A stretch of 64,000 nucleotides of DNA from Candidatus Paceibacter sp. (lineage in GTDB: Bacteria > Patescibacteriota > Minisyncoccia > Phycocordibacterales > GCA-2747955), in contig JABACC010000007.1 in the NCBI GenBank assembly GCA_014237915.1, positions 1,446-65,445 on the forward strand, given 5' to 3'. The translations under genes were made by a program, and so were the position numbers. Under the pieces are notes generated by a model. The model saw only the letters and a program-made list of their open reading frames with translations, searched no databases and had not been told where the DNA came from. Below, one piece after another: positions 20,455 through 33,761 of the stretch (the stretch's first letter is position 1; each line of letters begins with the position of its first letter).

Positions 20455-21828
20455 TTGATAATGCATATTTTTTCTAATCTTAAAAAAATTTTAAAAATAT
20501 TTTTTCTTTCAGTTTTTTTTGTATTCAACTTTGTTTTTTCTGAAATTCCAGCAGAAGAAGTTTTTCAGTATTTTTTAGAAAACCCAGAAAAAATATTTGA
20601 AACTGAAGTTCAGGAAGTTTTTTATTCAGCTCAAAATTCTCGGTATGAAATTTCATCTTTAAGTAAAGACAACTCAAATATTTCTTATATTTTTTTTGCT
20701 GAAGAGCAAAGCGGAGAAATTTTTTTTCTTGATGGAGATGGAGAAAAAAAATACACAGGCTACACCGTCACAATTTTACAAGAAAATTCAGATAATGAAG
20801 ACGAAGATATTGAAGATAAAATTTTGGATAACTTAACAGATTTTGAAGGGGTTTACAACGATCAACTTGGGGGAAATAACAAAAGAAATAGTTTTGCTGA
20901 AAACGAAGATGAGGTTGAAAAAACTTTAACACCCTCAGAGCAATTAGAAGAAGCAAATAAAAGTTTGGAAGATACAGATGAAGATATTAAAGATTTAGCA
21001 ATTGAAACGTTAGAAAATTATAGTTCGCTAAAAGAATTTGTACAGTTTAAAGAAACTTTAGATGAGGACGAAGATGGACTTTCTCCTAACTCGGGTACTG
21101 ATCTTTACAGAGACATACTTGAAGATTATTTAGCAAGCGAAGACGGAAAAGAAAAAATCCAAGATCTTTTTGAAAAAAGTTCTGTAGAAGATATTGAAGA
21201 ATTTGTCGATAAGTTTTTTATAGAAAATCCAAATTTAACTAATACTGAAAAAGAAAATTGGATATTTTATCTAGAAGAGTTAAAAGAAGTTGATGAGCAA
21301 AGAGAAATAAGAAAAGCTGAAAATTTCAGCGCTCCAGAAATTAATGAAGATGGGCTAAGTAATTTTGTAGAAGCCGGCCTAAAGGCTGTTTTGAGTGATT
21401 CTCAAGAAGGACGAGGGTCAGAAGAAGGAGATGGCCAAGATCCTAACTGCTATAAATATGACGAAAAAGGGAATCCAGTAAATGATACCAGCAGGGGATA
21501 TGAAAGAGGGCTTGTGAAATATGATCCAGTATGTGATAAAAATACTAAAGGATTTGATGGTTTAATAATGACAATAAATGCGGTCACTAGTTTTGTTACA
21601 GGTATTGCTATTTTTTTATTTGTCGTTACCTTAATTTGGGCAGGAGGAATTTTAATGTTTCAAGGATCAAGTACCGGAGGAAGAGATAAAGCAAAAAAAA
21701 TGATAAACGGGGCAGTTATTGGAATATTTTTCATATTAGGAGCAACATTTATTGTAAGCTCGATTTTTTCTGTTTTCGGATTAGAAGATGAAGATTTAAT
21801 CGAAGGGAGTGTTGAAATATCTCAATAG
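20455..21828 (+). CDS. Secreted acidic protein with C-terminal VirB2/TrbC-like two-helix pilin module (long-form paralog)
   Basis: 457 aa. Signal peptide, roughly 330-aa D/E-rich region, then a C-terminal module (AVTSFVTGIAIFLFVVTLIWAGGILMFQGSSTGGRDKAKKMINGAVIGIFFILGATFIVSSIFSVFG) matching the downstream small paralogs. Confidence 0.4.
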   Translation: MIMHIFSNLKKILKIFFLSVFFVFNFVFSEIPAEEVFQYFLENPEKIFETEVQEVFYSAQNSRYEISSLSKDNSNISYIFFAEEQSGEIFFLDGDGEKKYTGYTVTILQENSDNEDEDIEDKILDNLTDFEGVYNDQLGGNNKRNSFAENEDEVEKTLTPSEQLEEANKSLEDTDEDIKDLAIETLENYSSLKEFVQFKETLDEDEDGLSPNSGTDLYRDILEDYLASEDGKEKIQDLFEKSSVEDIEEFVDKFFIENPNLTNTEKENWIFYLEELKEVDEQREIRKAENFSAPEINEDGLSNFVEAGLKAVLSDSQEGRGSEEGDGQDPNCYKYDEKGNPVNDTSRGYERGLVKYDPVCDKNTKGFDGLIMTINAVTSFVTGIAIFLFVVTLIWAGGILMFQGSSTGGRDKAKKMINGAVIGIFFILGATFIVSSIFSVFGLEDEDLIEGSVEISQ

Positions 21829-21873
21829 ATAAATTTGTTTTTTCTTTTTTTTAGCTTATAATATATTAATATC

Positions 21874-22314
21874 ATGAATCAAATTTTTTCAAAAAAATAT
21901 TTATTTTTTCTAATAATCCCTTTTTTATTTTCTATTTATTTTGTTACTTTTTCTTATAGTGCAGAATCTTGCGCTGGAGATTTTGAGTGTTTACAAAACC
22001 CATTAAAAGATAGCAATATTGGCTCAATTTCAGATTTAATTTCCACAATTTTAAATTTAATAATGATTTTAGCCGTTCCTTTTATAGTTATCGCTATAGT
22101 TTACTCAGGTTTTCTATTTATTCAAGCTCAAGGAAATCCAGAAAAAATAAAAACAGCTAGAAGTTTTTTACTTTGGTCCCTTGTTGGAGCTGGTATTGTT
22201 CTGGGTGCAAATGTTATTTATACCGTCATGGAAGATACATTTAAAAAATTTATTGCAGAAGAGGGTATAGAAAAAATAGAAGAAAAAAATTTAATAGAAG
22301 ATTATTATGTTTAA
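21874..22314 (+). CDS. VirB2/TrbC-like pilin candidate (paralog 2)
   Basis: 146 aa. Signal peptide, hydrophobic helix (LIMILAVPFIVIAIVYSGFLFI), short basic loop (QAQGNPEKIKTARS), second helix (FLLWSLVGAGIVLGANVIY). Confidence 0.45.
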   Translation: MNQIFSKKYLFFLIIPFLFSIYFVTFSYSAESCAGDFECLQNPLKDSNIGSISDLISTILNLIMILAVPFIVIAIVYSGFLFIQAQGNPEKIKTARSFLLWSLVGAGIVLGANVIYTVMEDTFKKFIAEEGIEKIEEKNLIEDYYV

Positions 22315-22663
22315 AAAAAAACAATTTAAAATATTTTTTTTGTTTTTATTAATTCCCTTTTTTTCTTTTTCAGCCAGCTTTTCAGAATTAGTAGACACAA
22401 TTTTTGTCGGAAGTTTAATTAAAGGTTTTGTTGGTTTAATTTTTTCTCTTTCTTTTCTATTTTTTTTATGGAAAGCCTTGCAGGTTATTTTAAACTTTGC
22501 TTCTTCAAAAAGAGGAGAATATTTAAAAGGGCTTTTTTTCAGTATTTTTCTTTTATTTGTAATGTTTTCAATTTGGTCTTTGGTAAACATTGTTTTAAGC
22601 ACTAATTTAAAAACAGGAACAGGATCTTCCGAAGATGTTATTTTTGATAAAATTAAATTTTAA
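22307..22663 (+). CDS. VirB2/TrbC-like pilin candidate (paralog 3)
   Basis: 118 aa. Same signal, helix, K/R loop, helix layout (…FLFFLWKALQVILNFASSKRGEYLKGLFFSIFLLFVMFSIWSLVN). Confidence 0.45.
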   Translation: MFKKKQFKIFFLFLLIPFFSFSASFSELVDTIFVGSLIKGFVGLIFSLSFLFFLWKALQVILNFASSKRGEYLKGLFFSIFLLFVMFSIWSLVNIVLSTNLKTGTGSSEDVIFDKIKF

Positions 22664-22771
22664 ATAAATTTTAAATAAATTTTTAACCCTTCAAATTCTT
22701 TAATCTTTAATTTTGACTTTATTTATTTTTTTTGATATAAAGGTATTATTAATAAGTAAATTTATTTTAAT

Positions 22772-23116
22772 ATGAAAAAAATTTTATTAACTTTGTCAGG
22801 GATTTCAGTTTTACCTGTTTTAGCTTTAGCTGATAATGGAATTGAAGAACTTATAAACACATTAGGAGAATTAATTCAAAGCGCTTCTACTGTTATTTTT
22901 GCTCTTGCAGCTCTTGTTTTCTTTTGGTCTTTAATTACCTACTTATGGGGAGCTGAAGAAAAAAAAGAAGGTGCTACAAAAGGAATTACTTTAAGTATCG
23001 TAGTTTTGTTTATAATGTTTTCAATTTGGGGAATTATTCAAATCCTTCAAGAAACAGTAGATGTTGATGGAGACGACTCAATAGATGTTCCAGAGTTTCC
23101 TGCTTTAAAATCTTAA
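22772..23116 (+). CDS. VirB2/TrbC-like pilin candidate (paralog 4)
   Basis: 114 aa. Cleavable signal (…LPVLALA). Helix 1 STVIFALAALVFFWSLITYLWGA, loop EEKKEGATKG, helix 2 ITLSIVVLFIMFSIWGIIQIL. Confidence 0.5.
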   Translation: MKKILLTLSGISVLPVLALADNGIEELINTLGELIQSASTVIFALAALVFFWSLITYLWGAEEKKEGATKGITLSIVVLFIMFSIWGIIQILQETVDVDGDDSIDVPEFPALKS

Positions 23117-23139
23117 AATAAAATAGTTTTAATTTAACT

Positions 23140-23421
23140 ATGGATAAAGTTGCCAAAATAATTCAAATTTTTGTTACAGAAATTTTAAATCCAATTATTG
23201 TAATTTTGATTTCTCTTTCTGTTGTTTATTTTTTTTGGGGAATGATGGTTTTTATTTTAAATTCTGACGATGAAACAAAAAGAACAGAAGCTAAATCTCA
23301 CATTTTTTGGAGCATTATAGGATTTGTTATTATTTTTGGAGTTTGGGGGATATTAAATTTTGTTGTTTTCAGTATTTATGATTTAACAAACCCAACCTCT
23401 GTTTCAGCAGCAGAAGCTTAA
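23140..23421 (+). CDS. VirB2/TrbC-like pilin candidate (paralog 5)
   Basis: 93 aa. Helix 1 …VVYFFWGMMVFILNS, loop DDETKRTEAKS, helix 2 HIFWSIIGFVIIFGVWGILNFVVF. A terminator hairpin (aaaaagcccgaagggctttttt) follows at about 23445-23470. Confidence 0.45.
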   Translation: MDKVAKIIQIFVTEILNPIIVILISLSVVYFFWGMMVFILNSDDETKRTEAKSHIFWSIIGFVIIFGVWGILNFVVFSIYDLTNPTSVSAAEA

Positions 23422-26160: not shown

Positions 26161-26250
26161 TTGAAATAAAAAACTTATCCCCAGAAATTTTTTTTGAAAT
26201 TTTTTTATGTGTTAATATAAATTTAAATTAGTAACTTTAACAATATAAAA

Positions 26251-29200
26251 ATGGCAAATCGATCTTTTAAAATTTTTTTAACTTTAGTATTTTTTTTAAC
26301 ACCTTTTATTTCTTTTGGGGCTGATATTTATCTTCAAAAAGATAATGCTTTATGGTCTGATCCCACAGCTTGGAGTGGAGGAGTTTTACCAACAAGTTCC
26401 GATAATGTTTATTTAAAAAAAGAGGACGGAACGGAGTTTGATAAAATTACAATTGATTCTGTCGCAACCTATTTATCTATGGATGCTTCAAACATTAAAG
26501 AAATTGATGTAAAGTATAATTTATATAGATCAATAGAAGCGCCAAATTCCATTGTAAATTTTTACAATGGAAGCAACCAAATAGCATCATCTAATTTTAA
26601 AATAAAAGCCAAAGAAATATATTTTAAAGAAGGCACCGTAGAAATTATTCGCTATCCTTATTTTGAGGCAGATAAAATAGTAGTAGAGGAGAATGCTAGT
26701 ATTTATATTTCTATAACCGCGTTAGGTTATTATAATTCTATAGAAATAAAAGGAGACTTAATTCATAATGGAAAATTTTTTGGAGTAAGGGATTTTGATA
26801 TAAATCTCGATGGAAGTTTTATTAATAATGGAGAGATGGAAGATGTTCATCACTTTTATATTTCAAAAAATATTGAAAACAATTCAGTTTTACCAGATGA
26901 TTTTTATTTTCGGTATAAAACAAGCACATCAAAAAATCACCCAGTTGAAATAAAAGGTTCTGAAAAAGTTTCCTTAATTGTGACAAATGATTCAAACAAT
27001 ATTTTTTATTTTCATGATTCCGTTGATCTTAAAAATTTTTATTCTTATTATGATTCATCAGTTATAGACACAGAAAATAGTTTAAGTATTTATCTTGAAG
27101 ATGGAAAAAGTTTTAAAGCAGAAAAAGTTTATGGTCATAACGTATATTTTTTAAACAATAATAATTTTCATTTAGAATCATACGGCTCTATTACTTTTTC
27201 TCCGTATCGACTTCCAAATATTTATGCAGAAAAATCAACTGTGATTATTGAGGGAGATGGTATTTTTAAGGAAATAAAAGCAAAAGAAATATATTTTTTG
27301 GAAGGGATTCATGAGTATCCCTATAAAGGAAATACAATCACAGCGGATAATATAGTTTTAGAAGAGGGCTCATATATTCGTAATAATCAAGACCCGTACC
27401 AAAGTGGGGTAGAACCACTGACCATAAATGGAGATGTGAAAAACATGGGTTCCTTAGGAGATGATAACTTTATTATAAATGGAAACCTAGAAAATAATGG
27501 GAATGTAACAAACTTCAAGACAATTAAGGTGTATGGAGATGTATATAATAATGGTACATTTCAAGAAAACTCAAGAGGCGATTCTCCAACAATTTTTGCA
27601 TATGGAGATTTCTATAATTTTGGAACATACACATCACGAAACTTTTATTCCTATGGAAATATAGATTCAAGTGATATATTAGAAACAAGTATTAATCTAT
27701 ATGAAAACGTTGATGGAATCCATAAAAAGCTATCTTTTTCTGGAGATTATTTAAATTCAAATCTTATTATTAGGGAAAATATAACCTTAGATAAATCAGT
27801 AAGAGAAATTCCTTTTGATATTGAAGATGCAGAAATTATTGTAAATTCTAACTTCCTAGAGGTTCCAACTTTAAAGAATTCTAAACTTGAAGGAGATTTT
27901 GTTTTAGAAGTAAGAAATATTATAGACACTGAAGCTTTAAACGTAAAAGTTAGTGTAAGTAACGATATCGGAGGAAATATTTCGGTGAAAAATATAGTGC
28001 TCACTTCAGGAGATTTAGAAAATGGAGTAAACAGAGTAAGTGATGACGTGGTAAGGTTTGAAACGCTCGAGATAGAAGAGAATGTCTCTCTAGAGGTTTA
28101 CAAAAGGGCACCAAAACTTTATGGAAAAATTCTAAACAAGGGAACAATTTATGGCCTCGACAACTATCAAGAATTGTTATTCATTTTTGAGGATTTCAAC
28201 AATCAAGGAATAATTGAAAATGAAATATCTGTGTATTTTTATTTTAACAAAGAAATTAACCAAACCAATCAATATTTCATAAAAGAAGGAACTTCTTTTT
28301 CAGAACCATCAGTTGATGAAATAAAAACAGGATATTCAGCTAGGGTTGAGGACTATCTAAACCAAACAGACAAAGAATTTTCAATTTGGTATAAACTTCC
28401 AGAAGAATCCGAATGGAAAGTAAATTATTTTAATGTTGATTTTGAAATTCCAGAAATTGTTGTTCCTCCTCCAGAACCTGAAACTTTAGAATTTTCTTTT
28501 TCTAACATCGAAGATCATTTAAAAAACGAAGAAGTAGAAATTACACTAAGCGCTGCAAGGAATTTGCAAGATAGGGATTCTAAAGTAAGAAGAAAAGAAA
28601 TGTATTTTTATCTTTCTACAAACAAAGGAGATATTGTTTATCCTTCTGTTGTAACTTTTGCAGAAGATGGAGATTATTATGAAAAAGAAAAAACTTTTTC
28701 TATGAAAATAGATGAAGCAGAAAGTGATATTGAAATATATATTAAAGATAGTGAGGGAAATCTTTTAGGAACTTCAAAACCTTTTTCTGTAGTAGAGTCG
28801 GGAAAAGCTTATTTTAAATTTAGAGAGGATCATTATCATAGGTATGATTTGGACATAAAATTAGGAACAAAAGACTACTCTTTTGAATCCACAAAATCTA
28901 TAAATTTAATGGTTTTACCTTGCGATGAAAATCTCTCTGTTATACCAAAAGGTAATATTTTTATTCCAAGCGACACAGGCCTTATACATCAAGAATTTTT
29001 TTATCTACCAATACAAGTTAACATATCTTGCGACACAACAGATACGATAGAAATAGCAAAATCTATTCCCTACGAAAATTGGGTTTGTGAAGACTCAGAC
29101 AAAACCCCAGTTTTACTTTTACCGGGGATTATGGGCTCTGATACAAAATTTAACCTTTCTGTTTACCCTCAAATACCAAAAGATTCCCCTGCTTGGGATT

Positions 29201-30201
29201 CTGAAAAACTTGTTTTACATGATCCAGGACCAGCTAATTTTTCAGTAGGTTGGGAAAATCTTAAAGATGAGCTTAGGAGCGAAGGTTACAGAGGAGGTTG
29301 CAATATTATAGATGTTCCCTACGATTGGAGGTTAGAAATTCCAGAAATTAGAGATTTATACCTAATCCCTTGGATCGAAGAAGCAAAAAGACTAACAGGT
29401 AAAGATGAAGTTGATATTGTAGCTCATTCAATGGGCGGGCTTGTGGCCAGATCTTTTATTCAATCTTCAAAACATTTAAACGAAGTGAGAAATTTTGTAA
29501 TGGTAGGAACTCCAAACTCTGGCTCAGCCTCAACTTATCCTATCTGGGAAGGAGGGGATCCAATTTTAGTAGATAAAAATACTCAAGATTTATCAACTAT
29601 TGGAGGATATGTATCAAAGTATTTTTACACCAACACTATAAATAAAAATTATAAAAAAGTTATCGAAGATAAAGATTTATGCATTTGGGAATCAGGATTT
29701 TTACCTGCTCCAATTTATTGCAACAAAGAAAAAGTTTATGATTTTTTACATACATACTCTCCTTCTGTTGGAAACTTAATGCCAACATACCCCGGAGCTT
29801 TAAAAGATCATCTTAGCGAAGCAGATTTAAATATATCAGCTGAGCCAAATAATTTTCTTCTTGCTTTAAATAGTGGAGGAGATTACGGCAGAGATACATA
29901 TATTCACCCAGACGATATTAATAATAAAATATCAGGAGAGAGTATTCTTTTTTATGGAGATAATTTTGATACAATAGAAAATATAAAGGTAGATCAAAGC
30001 TTTTCTCATCAATTTTTGTATCAAGATGGAAAACCTTCTGGCCTAGATTTTATAATTAAAAATCAAGGAGACAAGACAGTTCCTAAAGTCTCAATACCGA
30101 TAGGTAATATTAATTTATCTTCTGATGTTTCAGATCAGGAACACGGGCGACTTATAAATGATTTAAAAGAAGAAATTGTTGAGTTTATTAATAATAATTA
30201 A
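26251..30201 (+). CDS. Giant secreted surface protein with C-terminal LCAT-like alpha/beta-hydrolase (phospholipase/acyltransferase) domain
   Basis: 1316 aa. N-terminal signal peptide (FLTPFISFGADIY). Roughly 900 aa of Asn/Gly/Tyr-rich repetitive beta-type sequence. C-terminal domain with PYDWR (the LCAT/PDAT-family YDWR motif), nucleophile elbow VAHSMGGLVAR (GxSxG), and downstream Asp/His candidates. Confidence 0.6.
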   Translation: MANRSFKIFLTLVFFLTPFISFGADIYLQKDNALWSDPTAWSGGVLPTSSDNVYLKKEDGTEFDKITIDSVATYLSMDASNIKEIDVKYNLYRSIEAPNSIVNFYNGSNQIASSNFKIKAKEIYFKEGTVEIIRYPYFEADKIVVEENASIYISITALGYYNSIEIKGDLIHNGKFFGVRDFDINLDGSFINNGEMEDVHHFYISKNIENNSVLPDDFYFRYKTSTSKNHPVEIKGSEKVSLIVTNDSNNIFYFHDSVDLKNFYSYYDSSVIDTENSLSIYLEDGKSFKAEKVYGHNVYFLNNNNFHLESYGSITFSPYRLPNIYAEKSTVIIEGDGIFKEIKAKEIYFLEGIHEYPYKGNTITADNIVLEEGSYIRNNQDPYQSGVEPLTINGDVKNMGSLGDDNFIINGNLENNGNVTNFKTIKVYGDVYNNGTFQENSRGDSPTIFAYGDFYNFGTYTSRNFYSYGNIDSSDILETSINLYENVDGIHKKLSFSGDYLNSNLIIRENITLDKSVREIPFDIEDAEIIVNSNFLEVPTLKNSKLEGDFVLEVRNIIDTEALNVKVSVSNDIGGNISVKNIVLTSGDLENGVNRVSDDVVRFETLEIEENVSLEVYKRAPKLYGKILNKGTIYGLDNYQELLFIFEDFNNQGIIENEISVYFYFNKEINQTNQYFIKEGTSFSEPSVDEIKTGYSARVEDYLNQTDKEFSIWYKLPEESEWKVNYFNVDFEIPEIVVPPPEPETLEFSFSNIEDHLKNEEVEITLSAARNLQDRDSKVRRKEMYFYLSTNKGDIVYPSVVTFAEDGDYYEKEKTFSMKIDEAESDIEIYIKDSEGNLLGTSKPFSVVESGKAYFKFREDHYHRYDLDIKLGTKDYSFESTKSINLMVLPCDENLSVIPKGNIFIPSDTGLIHQEFFYLPIQVNISCDTTDTIEIAKSIPYENWVCEDSDKTPVLLLPGIMGSDTKFNLSVYPQIPKDSPAWDSEKLVLHDPGPANFSVGWENLKDELRSEGYRGGCNIIDVPYDWRLEIPEIRDLYLIPWIEEAKRLTGKDEVDIVAHSMGGLVARSFIQSSKHLNEVRNFVMVGTPNSGSASTYPIWEGGDPILVDKNTQDLSTIGGYVSKYFYTNTINKNYKKVIEDKDLCIWESGFLPAPIYCNKEKVYDFLHTYSPSVGNLMPTYPGALKDHLSEADLNISAEPNNFLLALNSGGDYGRDTYIHPDDINNKISGESILFYGDNFDTIENIKVDQSFSHQFLYQDGKPSGLDFIIKNQGDKTVPKVSIPIGNINLSSDVSDQEHGRLINDLKEEIVEFINNN

Positions 30202-30203
30202 AT
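30141..30203 (+). repeat. Junction repeat copy 1 (3' end of giant-protein CDS + RBS/start of downstream gene)
   Basis: …aatgatttaaaagaagaaattgttgagtttattaataataattaaatATG…, repeated nearly identically at 30541 and 30921. Confidence 0.8.
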
Positions 30204-30539
30204 ATGAATATTATAGAAAAAATAAATATAAAATTAATATTGTTAACAATATATATATATATATATATAAATTTAGGCGGAGCTTATTTGGTATTTCAAT
30301 TTTCTAGAAGTTCTATGTGGGGTCAAGATTTTGACAATATTTTAAGTCATTTATTAGAAGTTCTAAATACTCTTTTTAACTTAATGTATTCTAACTTTTT
30401 AATATTTTTATTATTATTTACTTTTTCTTTTTTTCTTTCCAAGTTTTTCTTAAAAAAAGAAAATAAATTATATTATATTTTATTCCACATTTTAGCCTTA
30501 CCTGCATCTTTTTTTGGGTATTTTATTTTAGTTGTATAG
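30204..30539 (+). CDS. Small polytopic membrane protein (cassette paralog A); immunity-protein-like position
   Basis: 111 aa. Conserved N-terminus MNIIEKINIKLILLTIYIYIYI and C-terminus YILFHILALPASFFGYFILVV shared with the next ORF; middle diverged. Contains (AT)10 at 30249-30269. Confidence 0.4.
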   Translation: MNIIEKINIKLILLTIYIYIYINLGGAYLVFQFSRSSMWGQDFDNILSHLLEVLNTLFNLMYSNFLIFLLLFTFSFFLSKFFLKKENKLYYILFHILALPASFFGYFILVV

Positions 30540-30540
30540 G

Positions 30541-30600
30541 TTAGTAAATGACTTAAAAGAAGAAATTGTTGAGTTTATTAATAATAATTAAATATGAATA
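30541..30600 (+). repeat. Junction repeat copy 2
   Basis: gttagtaaatgacttaaaagaagaaattgttgagtttattaataataattaaatatgaatattatag: duplicates the last roughly 50 nt of the giant CDS plus the start of the small gene. Confidence 0.8.
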
Positions 30601-30920
30601 TTATAGAAAAAATAAATATAAAATTAATATTATTAACAATATATATATATATATATATTAGTCTGGGGGGAGTTTTTGCAACAATGATATTTTCAGATTT
30701 TCGTATAGATGAATTAGTTACCGCTTTTTTTTATTCTTTTATTCCTTTTTTTATTTATATTTGGAGTAAACACTTTGTTATTTCTTTGATTTCGGTGATC
30801 ATCTCTTTTTCACTTGTTAAATTTAATATGATAAAAAAAATAAAAAAAATCTACATAATACTATTTCATATTTTAATTTTACCCCTTTCTTTTTTTGGGT
30901 ATTTTATTTTATTTGTATAG
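30594..30920 (+). CDS. Small polytopic membrane protein (cassette paralog B)
   Basis: 108 aa. Same conserved termini as paralog A with a different central segment. (AT)10 tract at 30639-30658. Confidence 0.4.
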   Translation: MNIIEKINIKLILLTIYIYIYISLGGVFATMIFSDFRIDELVTAFFYSFIPFFIYIWSKHFVISLISVIISFSLVKFNMIKKIKKIYIILFHILILPLSFFGYFILFV

Positions 30921-30980
30921 GTTAGTAAATGACTTAAAAGAAGAAATTGTTGAGTTTATAATTAATAATAATTAAATATG
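30921..30980 (+). repeat. Junction repeat copy 3 (with 5-nt insertion)
   Basis: gttagtaaatgacttaaaagaagaaattgttgagtttataattaataataattaaatATGaaaaatc… The ATG at 30976 opens a 21-codon frame that stops inside an (AT)6 tract, 1 nt out of frame with the 31010 ORF. Confidence 0.75.
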
Positions 30981-31009
30981 AAAAATCTAAAAGAATTTAT
31001 TAAAAAAGA

Positions 31010-31627
31010 TTGGTGGAGATTAATATTAATATATATATATTAATATTAGTAATTTTCCCTAATATTTTAATAGGATTATCATTTAGTATAACATATTTTG
31101 AATTTATTACATATTACCTTGAAGAAACAAAAACAATCTTTCTTACACTAGGTATAGCTTTTGGTTTTTTCTTATTTTTTCTATCAATATTTAAATTTAT
31201 TTTTGTAGAAAAATATTTTCTAGCATTTAACACATTTTTCGCAATCTCCCTGCCTACGATATACAGCGTTTTACGTATAGGAGAAGTATCAAGTCTTTTT
31301 TACGCAATACTTATGATGTTTATTTTTTTCGTAATTGTCCCTTTGGTATTTGAAAGTATATTTAAAGAAAAATATTTTTTATTTTTTAATGCGTTTATAC
31401 TCTTATTAGCAATTTTTATTTTTTCTTTTTTAAATTCGATAGTTTTATATTTTTTTTTAGCTCTTGCTGTATACATAATTTTACTTTTATTTTTTCTATC
31501 AATATTTAAATTTTCTCTTAATGAAAAAGTTAGAAATTACATAACAATATCTTTATTTTTTTTCTATATATTTTTCTTCGTAGCTCTATATTTTTATTTT
31601 TATAATATTTTTATACCCAGTCTTTAA
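31010..31627 (+). CDS. Polytopic membrane protein (cassette-associated); N-terminus possibly phase-variable via (AT)n
   Basis: 205 aa, roughly 6 TM helices. An internal near-repeat (FFLFFLSIFKFIFVEKYFL ... LLLFFLSIFKFSLNEK) suggests internal duplication. Confidence 0.35.
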   Translation: MVEININIYILILVIFPNILIGLSFSITYFEFITYYLEETKTIFLTLGIAFGFFLFFLSIFKFIFVEKYFLAFNTFFAISLPTIYSVLRIGEVSSLFYAILMMFIFFVIVPLVFESIFKEKYFLFFNAFILLLAIFIFSFLNSIVLYFFLALAVYIILLLFFLSIFKFSLNEKVRNYITISLFFFYIFFFVALYFYFYNIFIPSL

Positions 31628-31637
31628 TTTTTAAAAA

Positions 31638-32219
31638 ATGCAAAGTTTAGAAAAATTAAAAAAAAATATTCAAAAAAACTTTTATGTAATTTTAGCTTTT
31701 TTAATTCCATTAATTCTTATTATTTCAGTAGCTTTAAATATTTATTTTTCTGCACTTTCTGTTAATTCCAGCCATGAATTTATCTACACTTCTTGCATGA
31801 AAAAAAATACAGATTGCGATAATAGTTATAGAGAAAATTATAAAGAAAATTTTTATTCTGTTTCTAATAAAAAAATAATTAAAAATTTTGAAGAAGGCCA
31901 AGTTGTAGATGAAAAAGAGATTGAAAAAAGAGATATTCCAAATCTTTTTATATACAATCCTGAAAATAATTCTAGCAGAGAGGTTCTCTTTGAAGAGATA
32001 GAAAATCTAAAAATTAGAGAACAAATCACTTCCCCAGAAGGAGTTATACTTTTATATGATTTTGACAGAAATCCTGGAGGTTTTTTATTGTTTGAGGGAG
32101 GTGGTTATGACTATGAATTTTTTTTAGCAAAAGAAAATAAAAAAAGAAAAATAAATCTAATTTCAAATGGAACAAGGTGGGAAAAACCAATCCATTTTAT
32201 TGGTTGGATAGAAAATTAA
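31638..32219 (+). CDS. Hypothetical membrane-anchored/secreted protein
   Basis: 193 aa. N-terminal TM and a soluble domain with two Cys. No motif recognised. Confidence 0.3.
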   Translation: MQSLEKLKKNIQKNFYVILAFLIPLILIISVALNIYFSALSVNSSHEFIYTSCMKKNTDCDNSYRENYKENFYSVSNKKIIKNFEEGQVVDEKEIEKRDIPNLFIYNPENNSSREVLFEEIENLKIREQITSPEGVILLYDFDRNPGGFLLFEGGGYDYEFFLAKENKKRKINLISNGTRWEKPIHFIGWIEN

Positions 32220-32236: not shown

Positions 32237-32770
32237 ATGAAAAAAGAAAAAATATTAGAAGAGCTTGCTTTAAAAATTATAAAAAAAGAAATAAGTAAAG
32301 ATGAAGTTGATATAGTGGCTCATTCAATGGGCGGGCTTGTGGCCAGATCTTTTATTCAATCTTCAAAACATTTAAACGAAGTGAGAAATTTTGTAATGGT
32401 AGGAACTCCAAACTCTGGCTCAGCCTCAACTTATCCTATCTGGGAAGGAGGGGATCCTATGGAAGTAGATATTTTACTAGGCGGAACTTTCGCTATCATT
32501 TTTTTTAACGAAGGAGATATATCGATGCTCAAATGGAATATTTTATATTTTTTGTTTACCATCTTTTGTGTTTTTCTATCTGTTAAAATGAAGAGTACTT
32601 CCATTTTATCTATTAATACATTATTTTTACTTTTATATATTTCTTATAATGTTAATGAATATTTTTCAAACTCCGTCAGCTTTCCTTTTTTGATCATCGT
32701 TTTAGGTTTTATTTTTTTACTTTTCGGATATCTTGCATTTCATTTTAATAAAAAATATATTAAAAACTAG
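32237..32770 (+). CDS. Orphan fragment: duplicated lipase active-site segment fused to a hydrophobic C-terminal region (possible pseudogene or recombination cassette)
   Basis: nt 32300-32460 are near-identical (one or two mismatches over about 160 nt) to nt 29401-29560 of the giant CDS. These encode EVDIVAHSMGGLVARSFIQSSKHLNEVRNFVMVGTPNSGSASTYPIWEGGDP. Flanks are unrelated; the C-terminal 100 aa are TM-rich. Confidence 0.35.
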   Translation: MKKEKILEELALKIIKKEISKDEVDIVAHSMGGLVARSFIQSSKHLNEVRNFVMVGTPNSGSASTYPIWEGGDPMEVDILLGGTFAIIFFNEGDISMLKWNILYFLFTIFCVFLSVKMKSTSILSINTLFLLLYISYNVNEYFSNSVSFPFLIIVLGFIFLLFGYLAFHFNKKYIKN

Positions 32771-32879
32771 AACTTAAAAATATCTGGGGATAAGTTTTTT
32801 ATTTTTTTAAAAAAGTGTGCTTTAATGTATTTAAGCGAAAATAACTTTTTTCTGCTCTTTGTAATATAATTAATTCGAT

Positions 32880-33761
32880 ATGATAAATTTTAAAAATAAT
32901 TTTAAAAAAATATTTTATATATTTTTTTGTTTACCGGCAATGTCTTTTGCTTCTGACTTTTCTTTTTCTTTCCCTGGATTTGTTAACGGATATGTGGAAA
33001 ACCAAAATGGAGAAAAAGCCGGAATTTTTGATTTGGATATTTGGGAAGAAATTGAAGGATATGATTTATATTTAAGCACTGAAAACGGAAGCAGAATAAC
33101 CTTGAATGAAATTGAAGACGGAAATTATAAAATATTTTTACAAGCATATGAAGAAATTGGAGAATATGAAACAAGTATTTTATTTGTTAATGATTTAGGC
33201 GATGTAAATTATTATTCACAAAATCATTATTTAAAGACTGGAAGAAACATAGATCTTCTAAATTTTTCTATAGAAAACGGAGAACTTGTTCTAGGTAAAG
33301 AATTTTCTCCAGTTGACGGAGTGAAGATAGATTATAGAAGTGGCCAAGAATTTTTACTTTGGAATGAAGTAGCTGGAGCCATAGCTTATGATATTTTTAA
33401 AAAAATGCCCGGAGAGGAAATACAAAATTTATATTCTATATCTGGAACGGAAACCCAGCTTATGGTCACAACTCCAAAAAGTTCAGAGTTTTATATTTCT
33501 GCAGTTTTTTCTAGAGAAAGTGGAGTTAAAGAAAAATCAGTCTTACATTATGGATCTTTAGGAACTTATGCTCCTGGGAAAGATGACGACGAAGATTCTA
33601 TCTCTGATTACTGGGAAGATGTTATTGGAACAGACAAAAACAATCCAGACTCAGATGGAGACGGAGTGGGAGATTTGGAAGAGATTTTAGGGGGGACAGA
33701 CCCAACCGTTGCAGATGTTTGGGAAGAAATCGTTTTATTTTTTAAGAGACTTTTTAGTTAA
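32880..33761 (+). CDS. Secreted protein with C-terminal thrombospondin type-3-like Ca-binding repeats
   Basis: 293 aa. Signal peptide (…CLPAMSFASDF). C-terminal D-rich DxDxDG-type motifs (DDDEDSISDYWEDVIGTDKNNPDSDGDGVGDLEEILGGTDP). Confidence 0.4.
   Translation: MINFKNNFKKIFYIFFCLPAMSFASDFSFSFPGFVNGYVENQNGEKAGIFDLDIWEEIEGYDLYLSTENGSRITLNEIEDGNYKIFLQAYEEIGEYETSILFVNDLGDVNYYSQNHYLKTGRNIDLLNFSIENGELVLGKEFSPVDGVKIDYRSGQEFLLWNEVAGAIAYDIFKKMPGEEIQNLYSISGTETQLMVTTPKSSEFYISAVFSRESGVKEKSVLHYGSLGTYAPGKDDDEDSISDYWEDVIGTDKNNPDSDGDGVGDLEEILGGTDPTVADVWEEIVLFFKRLFS

Follow-up and report, generated by a model that had tools for sequence, protein, structure and literature searches.

A giant lipase gene followed by repeated junctions and small membrane protein genes with TA tracts: a candidate cassette locus in a Paceibacteria-type bacterium

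The question raised by the locus described here is why the 3' end of a gene encoding a giant secreted protein, together with the start of the small membrane protein gene behind it, recurs twice more downstream in a genome of Candidatus Paceibacter sp., and whether these repeated junctions mark units that can be exchanged. The locus was analysed within a 64-kb window of a metagenome scaffold (ENA ERZ23487945, BUSC20-1 scaffold_178, 66 kb; the window is the whole stretch analysed, and positions refer to it), and this exact locus is represented by a single assembly. An earlier note on this DNA had described three tandem junction copies and read their conserved flanks and variable cores as the signature of polymorphic toxin/immunity loci and of recombinational switching cassettes. 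The explanation favoured here, with moderate confidence, is a lineage-specific locus of lipase and membrane-partner cassettes, which would be varied both by homologous recombination and by slippage at short repeats.

Junction repeats, small membrane genes and the lipase domain

The three tandem copies were confirmed, commencing at positions 30155, 30545 and 30926, and each was shown to comprise the last 47 nt of the giant open reading frame (ORF) with its stop codon and, beyond a spacer of 2 nt, the opening ~70 nt of the gene that follows. In terms of content, a copy consists of the final 16 codons of the giant ORF (LINDLKEEIVEFINNN), TAA, the dinucleotide AT, ATG, ~45 nt of small gene and a (TA)n tract. 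The first two copies (30155-30285 and 30545-30675) exhibit 94% identity over 131 nt, with alignment columns 31-90 being 100% identical, while the third (30926-31049) shows ~80% identity and has gained three nucleotides (ATA) in its tail and six near the beginning of the gene. The tail 23-mer AAAGAAGAAATTGTTGAGTTTAT was found exactly three times in the window, compared with zero occurrences expected from 100 dinucleotide-preserving shuffles. Furthermore, a second repeat (30451-30588 versus 30832-30969, 83% identity) was identified, indicating that the 3' ends of the small membrane genes sm1 and sm2 are also part of the array unit, and the tandem array has a period of 390/384 nt.

The start codon of sm1 is located 2 nt 3' of the stop codon of the giant gene. 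Comparison of the sm1 and sm2 products revealed that their first 22 residues are identical and that 18 of the last 22 are shared, so that the identical termini proposed in the earlier note hold for the N-terminus and only approximately for the C-terminus. The centres of the two genes were, as claimed, unrelated at the nucleotide level, with undetectable similarity (z = -0.75), and protein similarity was marginal (z = 2.3, p ~0.02). The pattern of conserved junctions flanking variable cores is therefore real, with flanks being 94-100% identical and the centre unalignable, which rules out simple divergence after duplication; with flanks near-identical and a saturated centre, the mosaic requires gene conversion or cassette replacement. 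The non-coding tail remnants are as strongly conserved as coding sequence.

The recurrence of a downstream gene start at each junction was borne out for the first two copies, but the third is not followed by an intact gene: the reading frame of sm3 encounters a stop after 21 codons, at its TA tract. Removal of one TA (or addition of two) would fuse this frame with an ORF at 31010-31627, yielding a 215-aa protein with multiple transmembrane (TM) helices. The restored protein contains three internal tandem modules of ~52 aa (repeats at 31165, 31324 and 31480), each ending in an IFK-x-x-x-EKYF-like sequence, and sm3 has the look of an internally triplicated sm gene. It was absent from the original gene annotation and exemplifies how switched-off members are overlooked or shortened by gene callers.

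Perfect (TA)n tracts of at least five units were found at only three sites in the 64 kb (TA10, TA10 and TA6), which correspond to one another in sm1, sm2 and sm3, whereas the expected count of (TA)6 was 0 in dinucleotide-preserving shuffles. The sm proteins are predicted to be integral membrane proteins with three TM helices (3-TM) and no soluble domain. Searches of Pfam and NCBIfam with sm1, sm2, sm3 and the downstream orf193 returned no family match, and a profile of the sm family, searched against 5.8e9 proteins and against 1.84e9 representatives (full HMMER), returned only the four called members. On these searches, the sm family appears to be private to its clade.

The C-terminus of the giant protein is, as judged from sequence, an LCAT/PGAP1-like serine lipase with predicted activity. 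The domain matched the Pfam family PF02450 (LCAT) at 3.7e-16 and 59.8 bits (cut-off 21) and the PGAP1 profile at 33.1 bits (cut-off 24.3), its closest solved relative being group XV phospholipase A2 (4x90, E 7.5e-7). The predicted catalytic triad consists of Ser1060 in AHSMGG (nt 29428-29430), Asp1274 in GDKTVP and His1298 (EHG; nt 30142-30144), all three of which are invariant in the alignment of lipase homologues. The repeated junction begins 4 codons 3' of the catalytic His1298 and encodes the terminal helix, as predicted. Upstream of the lipase domain, the protein carries a Sec signal peptide (MANRSFKIFLTLVFFLTPFISFG/AD) and a stalk of ~950 aa. No full-length homologue of the giant protein was found among 5.8e9 proteins, the only match being the protein itself. 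Like the sm family, the stalk appears to be restricted to a small CPR clade.

A further piece of lipase sequence was identified in orf177, 2.9 kb downstream of the original. Residues 16-78 of its product are a copy of the nucleophile-elbow region of the lipase (nt 32283-32471 versus 29385-29575; 191 nt, 94.8% identity), and its C-terminus is a ~100-aa sm-like 3-TM part with an LLGG motif. Downstream of the main gene, the lipase pieces of the window are two 16-codon tails and this 63-aa fragment, with no complete silent cassette.

Table 1. Features of the locus and the basis of their assignment (window positions)
Feature	Position	Strand	Basis
Inverted repeat (28 nt, AAATAAAAAACTTATCCCCAGAAATTTT), left arm	26166..26192	+	
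Giant secreted protein, 1316 aa	26251..30201	+	ORF; signal peptide, repetitive stalk, C-terminal lipase
LCAT/PGAP1-like alpha/beta-hydrolase (lipase) domain, residues 953-1316	29107..30201	+	Pfam LCAT match
Junction copy 1: last 16 codons of lipase (terminal helix), TAA, AT spacer	30155..30203	+	Repeat comparison
sm1, 111-aa small membrane protein, ~3 TM helices	30204..30539	+	ORF; family alignment
(TA)10 tract of sm1, encoding IYIYIYI in the first TM helix (TM1), in frame	30249..30269	+	
Junction copy 2: non-coding lipase 3'-end remnant (LVNDLKEEIVEFINNN, then stop), 6 nt 3' of sm1 stop	30545..30593	+	Repeat comparison
sm2, 108-aa sm1 paralogue; ends conserved, centre unalignable	30594..30920	+	ORF; alignment
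In-frame (TA)n tract of sm2 (20 nt), with G6 behind it (30665-30670)	30639..30658	+	
Junction copy 3: lipase-tail remnant with 3-nt insertion	30926..30977	+	Repeat comparison
sm3, frameshifted	30978..31627	+	Restored translation; N-terminus resembles the 96-aa sm of L003
(TA)6 tract of sm3, site of frameshift	31029..31040	+	
orf193, N-terminal TM anchor and ~150-aa extracytoplasmic domain without family match	31638..32219	+	ORF; profile search
orf177, chimera of lipase-core copy and sm-like C-terminus	32237..32770	+	Repeat comparison, ORF
Inverted repeat (28 nt, AAATAAAAAACTTATCCCCAGAAATTTT), right arm, just 3' of orf177	32777..32804	-	

Cassette arrays, recombination and repeat lengths in relatives

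The closest homologue of the lipase domain (55% identity) was found in a Paceibacterota metagenome-assembled genome (MAG; L003/L006). In L003, the main lipase gene is followed, in this order, by a 96-aa sm gene, a 248-aa orphan lipase cassette, a frameshifted sm gene and an orphan copy of the pre-lipase domain. The 248-aa orphan starts just 3' of the GHSMGG motif and exhibits 80% nucleotide identity to the main gene, the corresponding value for the pre-lipase-domain copy being 88.7%. A second lineage, represented by L045 (GCA_027056285.1 JALULL010000391), L004 and L046 (ENA REYS20-1), was shown to carry sm genes in alternation with 5'-truncated lipase cassettes. The order in L046 is sm, orphan (362 aa), sm, orphan (378 aa), sm and a third orphan interrupted by the contig end, and in L045 a 93-codon lipase 3' fragment abuts the stop codon of the preceding sm gene. 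The lipase 3' fragments form a graded series of 378, 362, 248, 93 and 16 codons, in which the two 16-codon tails of the window may represent the minimal members; an equivalent reading is that these tails arose when a unit that began 47 nt before the end of the lipase gene was duplicated.

In L003, L045 and L046, one sm gene was found after every lipase 3' end. Type-B tails were associated with smB genes in L003, L045, L004 and L046, and a type-A tail with smA in the window and L045, except for one smA-type gene located behind a different tail type in L046. This co-occurrence would fit cognate pairing of tail and sm types, and would fit simple linkage equally well.

The relatives L045 and L046, which use code 4, also carry a conserved leader of ~200 nt 5' of every orphan cassette (translated ...VMQGINEKQNEVY.YT...AKQITQQDANF; L045 704-909 and 2266-2460, L046 299-500 and 1720-1930). 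This leader occurs once more at the array end without a cassette behind it, and constitutes a second kind of repeated boundary element. As regards the genetic code, L045, L004 and L046 read TGA as Trp: their cassettes contain three to five in-frame TGAs at invariant Trp positions (PW, IWEGGDP, CIW), and the methionyl-tRNA synthetase (MetRS) gene of L045 contains five, two of which align to conserved Trp residues in solved MetRS structures (K/P-W-G-I-P). This agrees with the UGA-to-Trp reassignment reported in the Patescibacteriota class Minisyncoccia (gTranslate preprint 10.64898/2026.05.24.727570). The window itself reads the standard code (code 11), since in-frame TGAs occur only in spurious frames, and TGA recoding was for the same reason ruled out as a source of wrong ORF boundaries in the window.

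Strain-level recombination was observed among these relatives. L045 and L004 exhibit 98.7% identity from the first lipase-homologous codon of the orphan cassette onward, with unrelated sequence upstream. L003 was shown to be 99% identical to L042/L043, which derive from different samples, with 32 of the 43 differences concentrated in a 100-nt stretch of the expressed gene; where this gene has an orphan copy, the base of L042 is that of the downstream orphan at 14 of 18 differing sites. As the clustered differences match the orphan at most of these sites, they point to gene conversion from a silent copy in L042/L043.

The proposal that C-terminal modules can be swapped by homologous recombination survives in these relatives, since they do hold alternative modules, in the form of orphan lipase cassettes that are all variants of one lipase; the conversion patch and the boundary variant are strain-level signs of recombination. 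The junctions of the window, by comparison, enclose only small genes, so that recombination between them would only delete, duplicate or re-order sm genes. The interpretation given in the earlier note is thus supported in part; it had missed the (TA)n tracts and the frameshift in sm3, which would add a second switching mechanism based on slippage.

In the loci of the relatives, all (TA)n tracts were found within sm genes, at two conserved positions, namely TM1 and just 5' of a KKIFKxKxF motif, and some copies also carry poly-G tracts (G9 to G13) in genomes of ~29% G+C content. Among the interpretable sm copies, four are in frame (sm1 and sm2 of the window, smA of L003 and smA of L045) and five are out of frame solely at a simple-sequence repeat (SSR), these being sm3 of the window, smB of L003, smB of L045/L004 and two copies in L046. 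In all five, the downstream frame is still open and conserved. For example, smB of L003 is frameshifted at an (AT)10 tract, and addition of one TA would result in a 100-aa protein. Differences in SSR length were also observed between close relatives: G11 in L045 versus G13 in L004 is the sole difference over 550 otherwise 100% identical nucleotides, and a tract of 15 nt in L045/L004 is 19 nt long in L046, which puts the last helix into another reading frame. Perfect repeats inside reading frames, in excess of chance, were thus found, as were paralogues or alleles whose repeat number sets the frame ON or OFF with the remainder of the ORF intact, as is the case at the sequence level for SSR contingency loci. 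Because IYIYI can be encoded without a perfect repeat, and the tracts are nevertheless conserved across differing genetic codes, the perfect tracts appear to be kept at the DNA level.

A scan of contigs from genomes with the lipase domain yielded 36 loci. Outside the Paceibacterota MAG, the distant homologues, from Proteobacteria, Nitrospirota, Desulfobacterota and other groups, have the domain in the interior of the protein and lack sm genes behind it. The combination of a C-terminal lipase with sm genes is therefore not general to the lipase family. The corresponding scan of metagenome contigs with the lipase domain identified one distant locus, at 39% identity.

Favoured explanation, rival explanations and known systems

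In the explanation that we favour, the junction copies would represent unit boundaries of a cassette array at the 3' end of the giant surface lipase gene of a Paceibacteria-type candidate phyla radiation (CPR) bacterium. A unit would consist of a lipase-gene 3' fragment, shrunk in the window to 16 codons and a stop, followed by a three-helix sm gene of ~100 codons, whose first TM helix is encoded by a (TA)n tract. Units may be created, deleted, homogenised and reshuffled as they undergo gene conversion and unequal crossing-over with one another, keeping the junctions 94-100% identical while the centres, predicted to correspond to an exposed loop and the second TM helix, remain deeply diverged; in the relatives, long silent lipase C-terminal cassettes would be copied into the expressed gene. 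Individual sm genes would be toggled ON or OFF by slipped-strand mispairing, for which the (TA)n tracts and, in relatives, also the poly-G tracts provide the sites, and such switching may occur within a population. In this assembly, sm1 and sm2 would be ON, and sm3 would be OFF, one TA unit from ON. The lipase may be displayed on the long stalk and act on host-cell membranes, a role that we infer from the inability of CPR bacteria to make lipids. The sm proteins would then be the membrane partner of the lipase, most likely protecting the producer's own membrane, and an immunity role for them is plausible.

Several points weigh against this explanation. The evidence for recombination comes from relatives at ~55% protein identity, because the window is without a complete silent lipase cassette. 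No variation in TA-tract length was seen among four 99%-identical contigs of the L003 lineage, and switching, if any, would not be dominant in consensus sequences; at the junctions and TA tracts of the window, for which there is one assembly only, no within-population variation was seen. The difference between G11 and G13 is possibly a homopolymer assembly error, and the out-of-frame sm copies could be early pseudogenes. The sm proteins have no homologues outside the clade among the 1.84e9 representative proteins and no family match. Finally, AlphaFold2 modelled the lipase domain with low confidence (pLDDT 58.9), and the model's best Foldseek matches (PhaZ7, bacterial lipases and LPLA2; template-modelling scores of 0.25-0.29) accordingly indicate generic lipases only.

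Among the rival explanations, a classical polymorphic toxin/immunity locus, as proposed in the earlier note, would cast the lipase as an interbacterial toxin, sm1-sm3 as cognate or orphan immunity genes and the junctions as swap handles. This is possible, although in our judgement unlikely. The layout of a giant secreted protein with an enzymatic C-terminal domain and a small gene immediately downstream resembles that of polymorphic toxin systems with orphan cassettes, such as CdiA-CT/CdiI, Rhs and MafB (Zhang, Aravind et al. 2012). The relatives add to this resemblance with arrayed 5'-truncated C-terminal cassettes that are paired one to one with sm genes, with the co-occurrence of tail and sm types across genomes and with a homology block suited to recombination. 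However, the resemblance does not extend to the cassettes themselves, all of which encode one and the same LCAT-like lipase family; alternative toxin folds were not found, nor were different toxin families on the same stalk, as no full-length homologue of the stalk was detected. Instead of a demarcation motif between constant region and variable C-terminus, such as the VENN or PxxxxDPxGL-type boundary of polymorphic toxins, the homology block is the catalytic core itself (VDIVAHSMGG...IWEGGDP, with the GHSMGG nucleophile elbow), and in the window the cassettes have shrunk to 16-codon tails and one 63-aa fragment. The small partners are 3-TM mini-proteins with SSRs, unlike the known lipase immunity proteins (Tle/Tli), which are soluble or lipoprotein binders, and a phase-variable OFF state is not expected of immunity genes. 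Moreover, no known dedicated secretion system accompanies the locus, genes for type V, VI or VII secretion being absent from its neighbourhood, and the smA-type gene behind another tail type in L046 departs from cognate pairing.

A small gene that was merely duplicated in tandem and recently subject to gene conversion, with no functional significance, the breakpoint falling by chance 47 nt inside the giant gene and the TA tracts being incidental to AT-rich sequence encoding Ile-Tyr, would account for the fact that copies 2 and 3 share the sm 3' end, tail and sm 5' end as one continuous block, and the 28% G+C content of the genome would fit it. We nevertheless consider this explanation improbable, as perfect (TA)n tracts were found neither in the remaining 63 kb nor in shuffled sequences, occur at the same two sm positions in genomes of differing genetic code and are unnecessary for encoding IYIYI; the conservation of non-coding tails beside saturated centres, the graded orphan lengths and the gene-conversion patch in relatives likewise argue against it. 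Still less probable is that the junction is conserved as an expression signal (promoter, stop-start coupling or initiation region), with the sm proteins being helpers of lipase folding, anchoring or export. The TAA-AT-ATG geometry is identical before all three genes, so that this may be partly true, and copy 3 contains a sigma70-like match (10/12) at 30934-30962. Promoter-like matches in the window were not enriched, however (58 versus 46 +/- 6.5 in shuffles, from a scan for promoters and terminators). Family I bacterial lipases, which are among the Foldseek matches, depend on a foldase that is anchored in the membrane and encoded by the next gene (lipase:foldase complexes 2es4 and 9g8u), but the sm proteins have no soluble domain able to act as a foldase, and the unalignable centres, orphan lipase fragments and SSRs would be left unexplained. 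An assembly artefact caused by duplicated or collapsed reads, which the metagenomic origin of the scaffold and repeats shorter than the paired-end insert might suggest, was rejected as scarcely credible, since the copies differ by substitutions and indels, each beside unique sequence, and the same architecture occurs in independent assemblies from other samples and lineages.

With SSR contingency loci such as Neisseria opa (CTCTT), Campylobacter poly-G genes and Haemophilus (TA)n at hif, the locus shares perfect short repeats near the 5' end of the coding sequence of genes for surface or membrane proteins, and a multigene family with in-frame and out-of-frame members whose tract lengths differ between close strains, the latter being seen in the relatives. 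It differs from these in that the TA repeat is translated as a transmembrane IYIYIYI, in that a single gene copy may contain up to three independent tracts (two or three; TA, poly-G, TA), and in that the host is an uncultured CPR bacterium, for which switching is predicted from sequence.

As in silent-cassette systems (pilE/pilS, vlsE, Mycoplasma genitalium MgPa/MgPar and tprK), a full-length, presumably expressed gene is accompanied by nearby partial copies that would be promoterless (191 nt at 94.8% identity in the window, two copies in L003 and three in L046), and strain mosaics that match a silent copy were found in relatives (L003 versus L042). In contrast to those systems, the varied part here comprises an enzyme domain and a stalk domain, a partner gene alternates with the cassettes, and a complete silent cassette is lacking in the window itself. 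The lipase effectors of the type VI secretion system (T6SS; Tle/Tli) offer a third parallel, as in both cases a serine lipase with a GxSxG motif leaves the cell and the adjacent small gene is possibly protective. Here, however, the lipase forms the C-terminal end of a protein of 1316 aa that is exported by Sec, and the partner is an integral membrane mini-protein; neither a T6SS context (VgrG, PAAR, Hcp) nor a soluble or lipoprotein immunity protein was found, the neighbours being pilins, a type II secretion system (T2SS)-type ATPase, GrpE and DnaK, and profile searches of the locus proteins revealed no sequence relationship to the Tle or Tli families. The locus appears to work like a hybrid of polymorphic-toxin orphan arrays, silent-cassette conversion and SSR contingency genes, and involves no new principle.

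It is conceivable, and proposed here only tentatively, that the locus represents the first described diversity-generating contingency system of Patescibacteria, in which a surface lipase is varied by silent-cassette conversion and its sm partner by slippage at (TA)n or poly-G tracts. No report of silent-cassette recombination or repeat slippage in Patescibacteria was found in the literature searched. If true, an obligate epibiont could in this manner change its host range, or escape recognition by host or phage. The locus also suggests that minimal CPR genomes invest in both of these classic variation mechanisms. An attack on the host envelope has been proposed for surface phospholipases of Patescibacteria, which do not synthesise lipids, with CPR lipid acquisition and surface adaptation to hosts being largely unknown (PMC11665869). 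The locus offers a concrete candidate in the form of a Sec-exported 1316-aa protein with an LCAT/phospholipase-A-like end and a private family of membrane mini-proteins, and the giant surface lipase could plausibly be the long-sought tool for lipid uptake from host membranes.

Genomic setting and flanking features

The window has a G+C content of ~28%, its lowest value (20.5%) being located in the sm array, at 30001-32000. Its gene content is typical of CPR/Patescibacteria, with type IV secretion system (T4SS)-type pilins and a small housekeeping set; genes near the locus encode a T2SS-type ATPase, T4SS-type pilins, GrpE and DnaK, with dnaK directly 5' of the locus. A five-gene cluster at 20455-23421, upstream of grpE-dnaK, was shown to include four genes with T4SS-pilin/TrbC-like Pfam matches (PF18895), and comparable pilin genes are located close to the cassette array of L004. 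An Rfam scan of 25-35 kb returned no match, and no tRNA gene was found near the locus.

The product of orf193, whose gene lies between sm3 and orf177, could be a soluble-domain partner of the lipase, of the immunity or foldase type. A near-perfect inverted repeat brackets the 6.6-kb locus, from just past the dnaK terminator to just past orf177. Its 17-nt core has no other mismatch-free occurrence in the window, and no recombinase or transposase gene was found near it. The repeat could represent the ends of an inserted island or of an invertible segment, its membership in the system being uncertain. Just outside the right arm, a gene at 32880-33761 encodes a 293-aa secreted protein, which shows a weak match to PF18884 and contains Asp-rich repeats (DSDGDGVGD) of the bacterial thrombospondin type-3-like kind.

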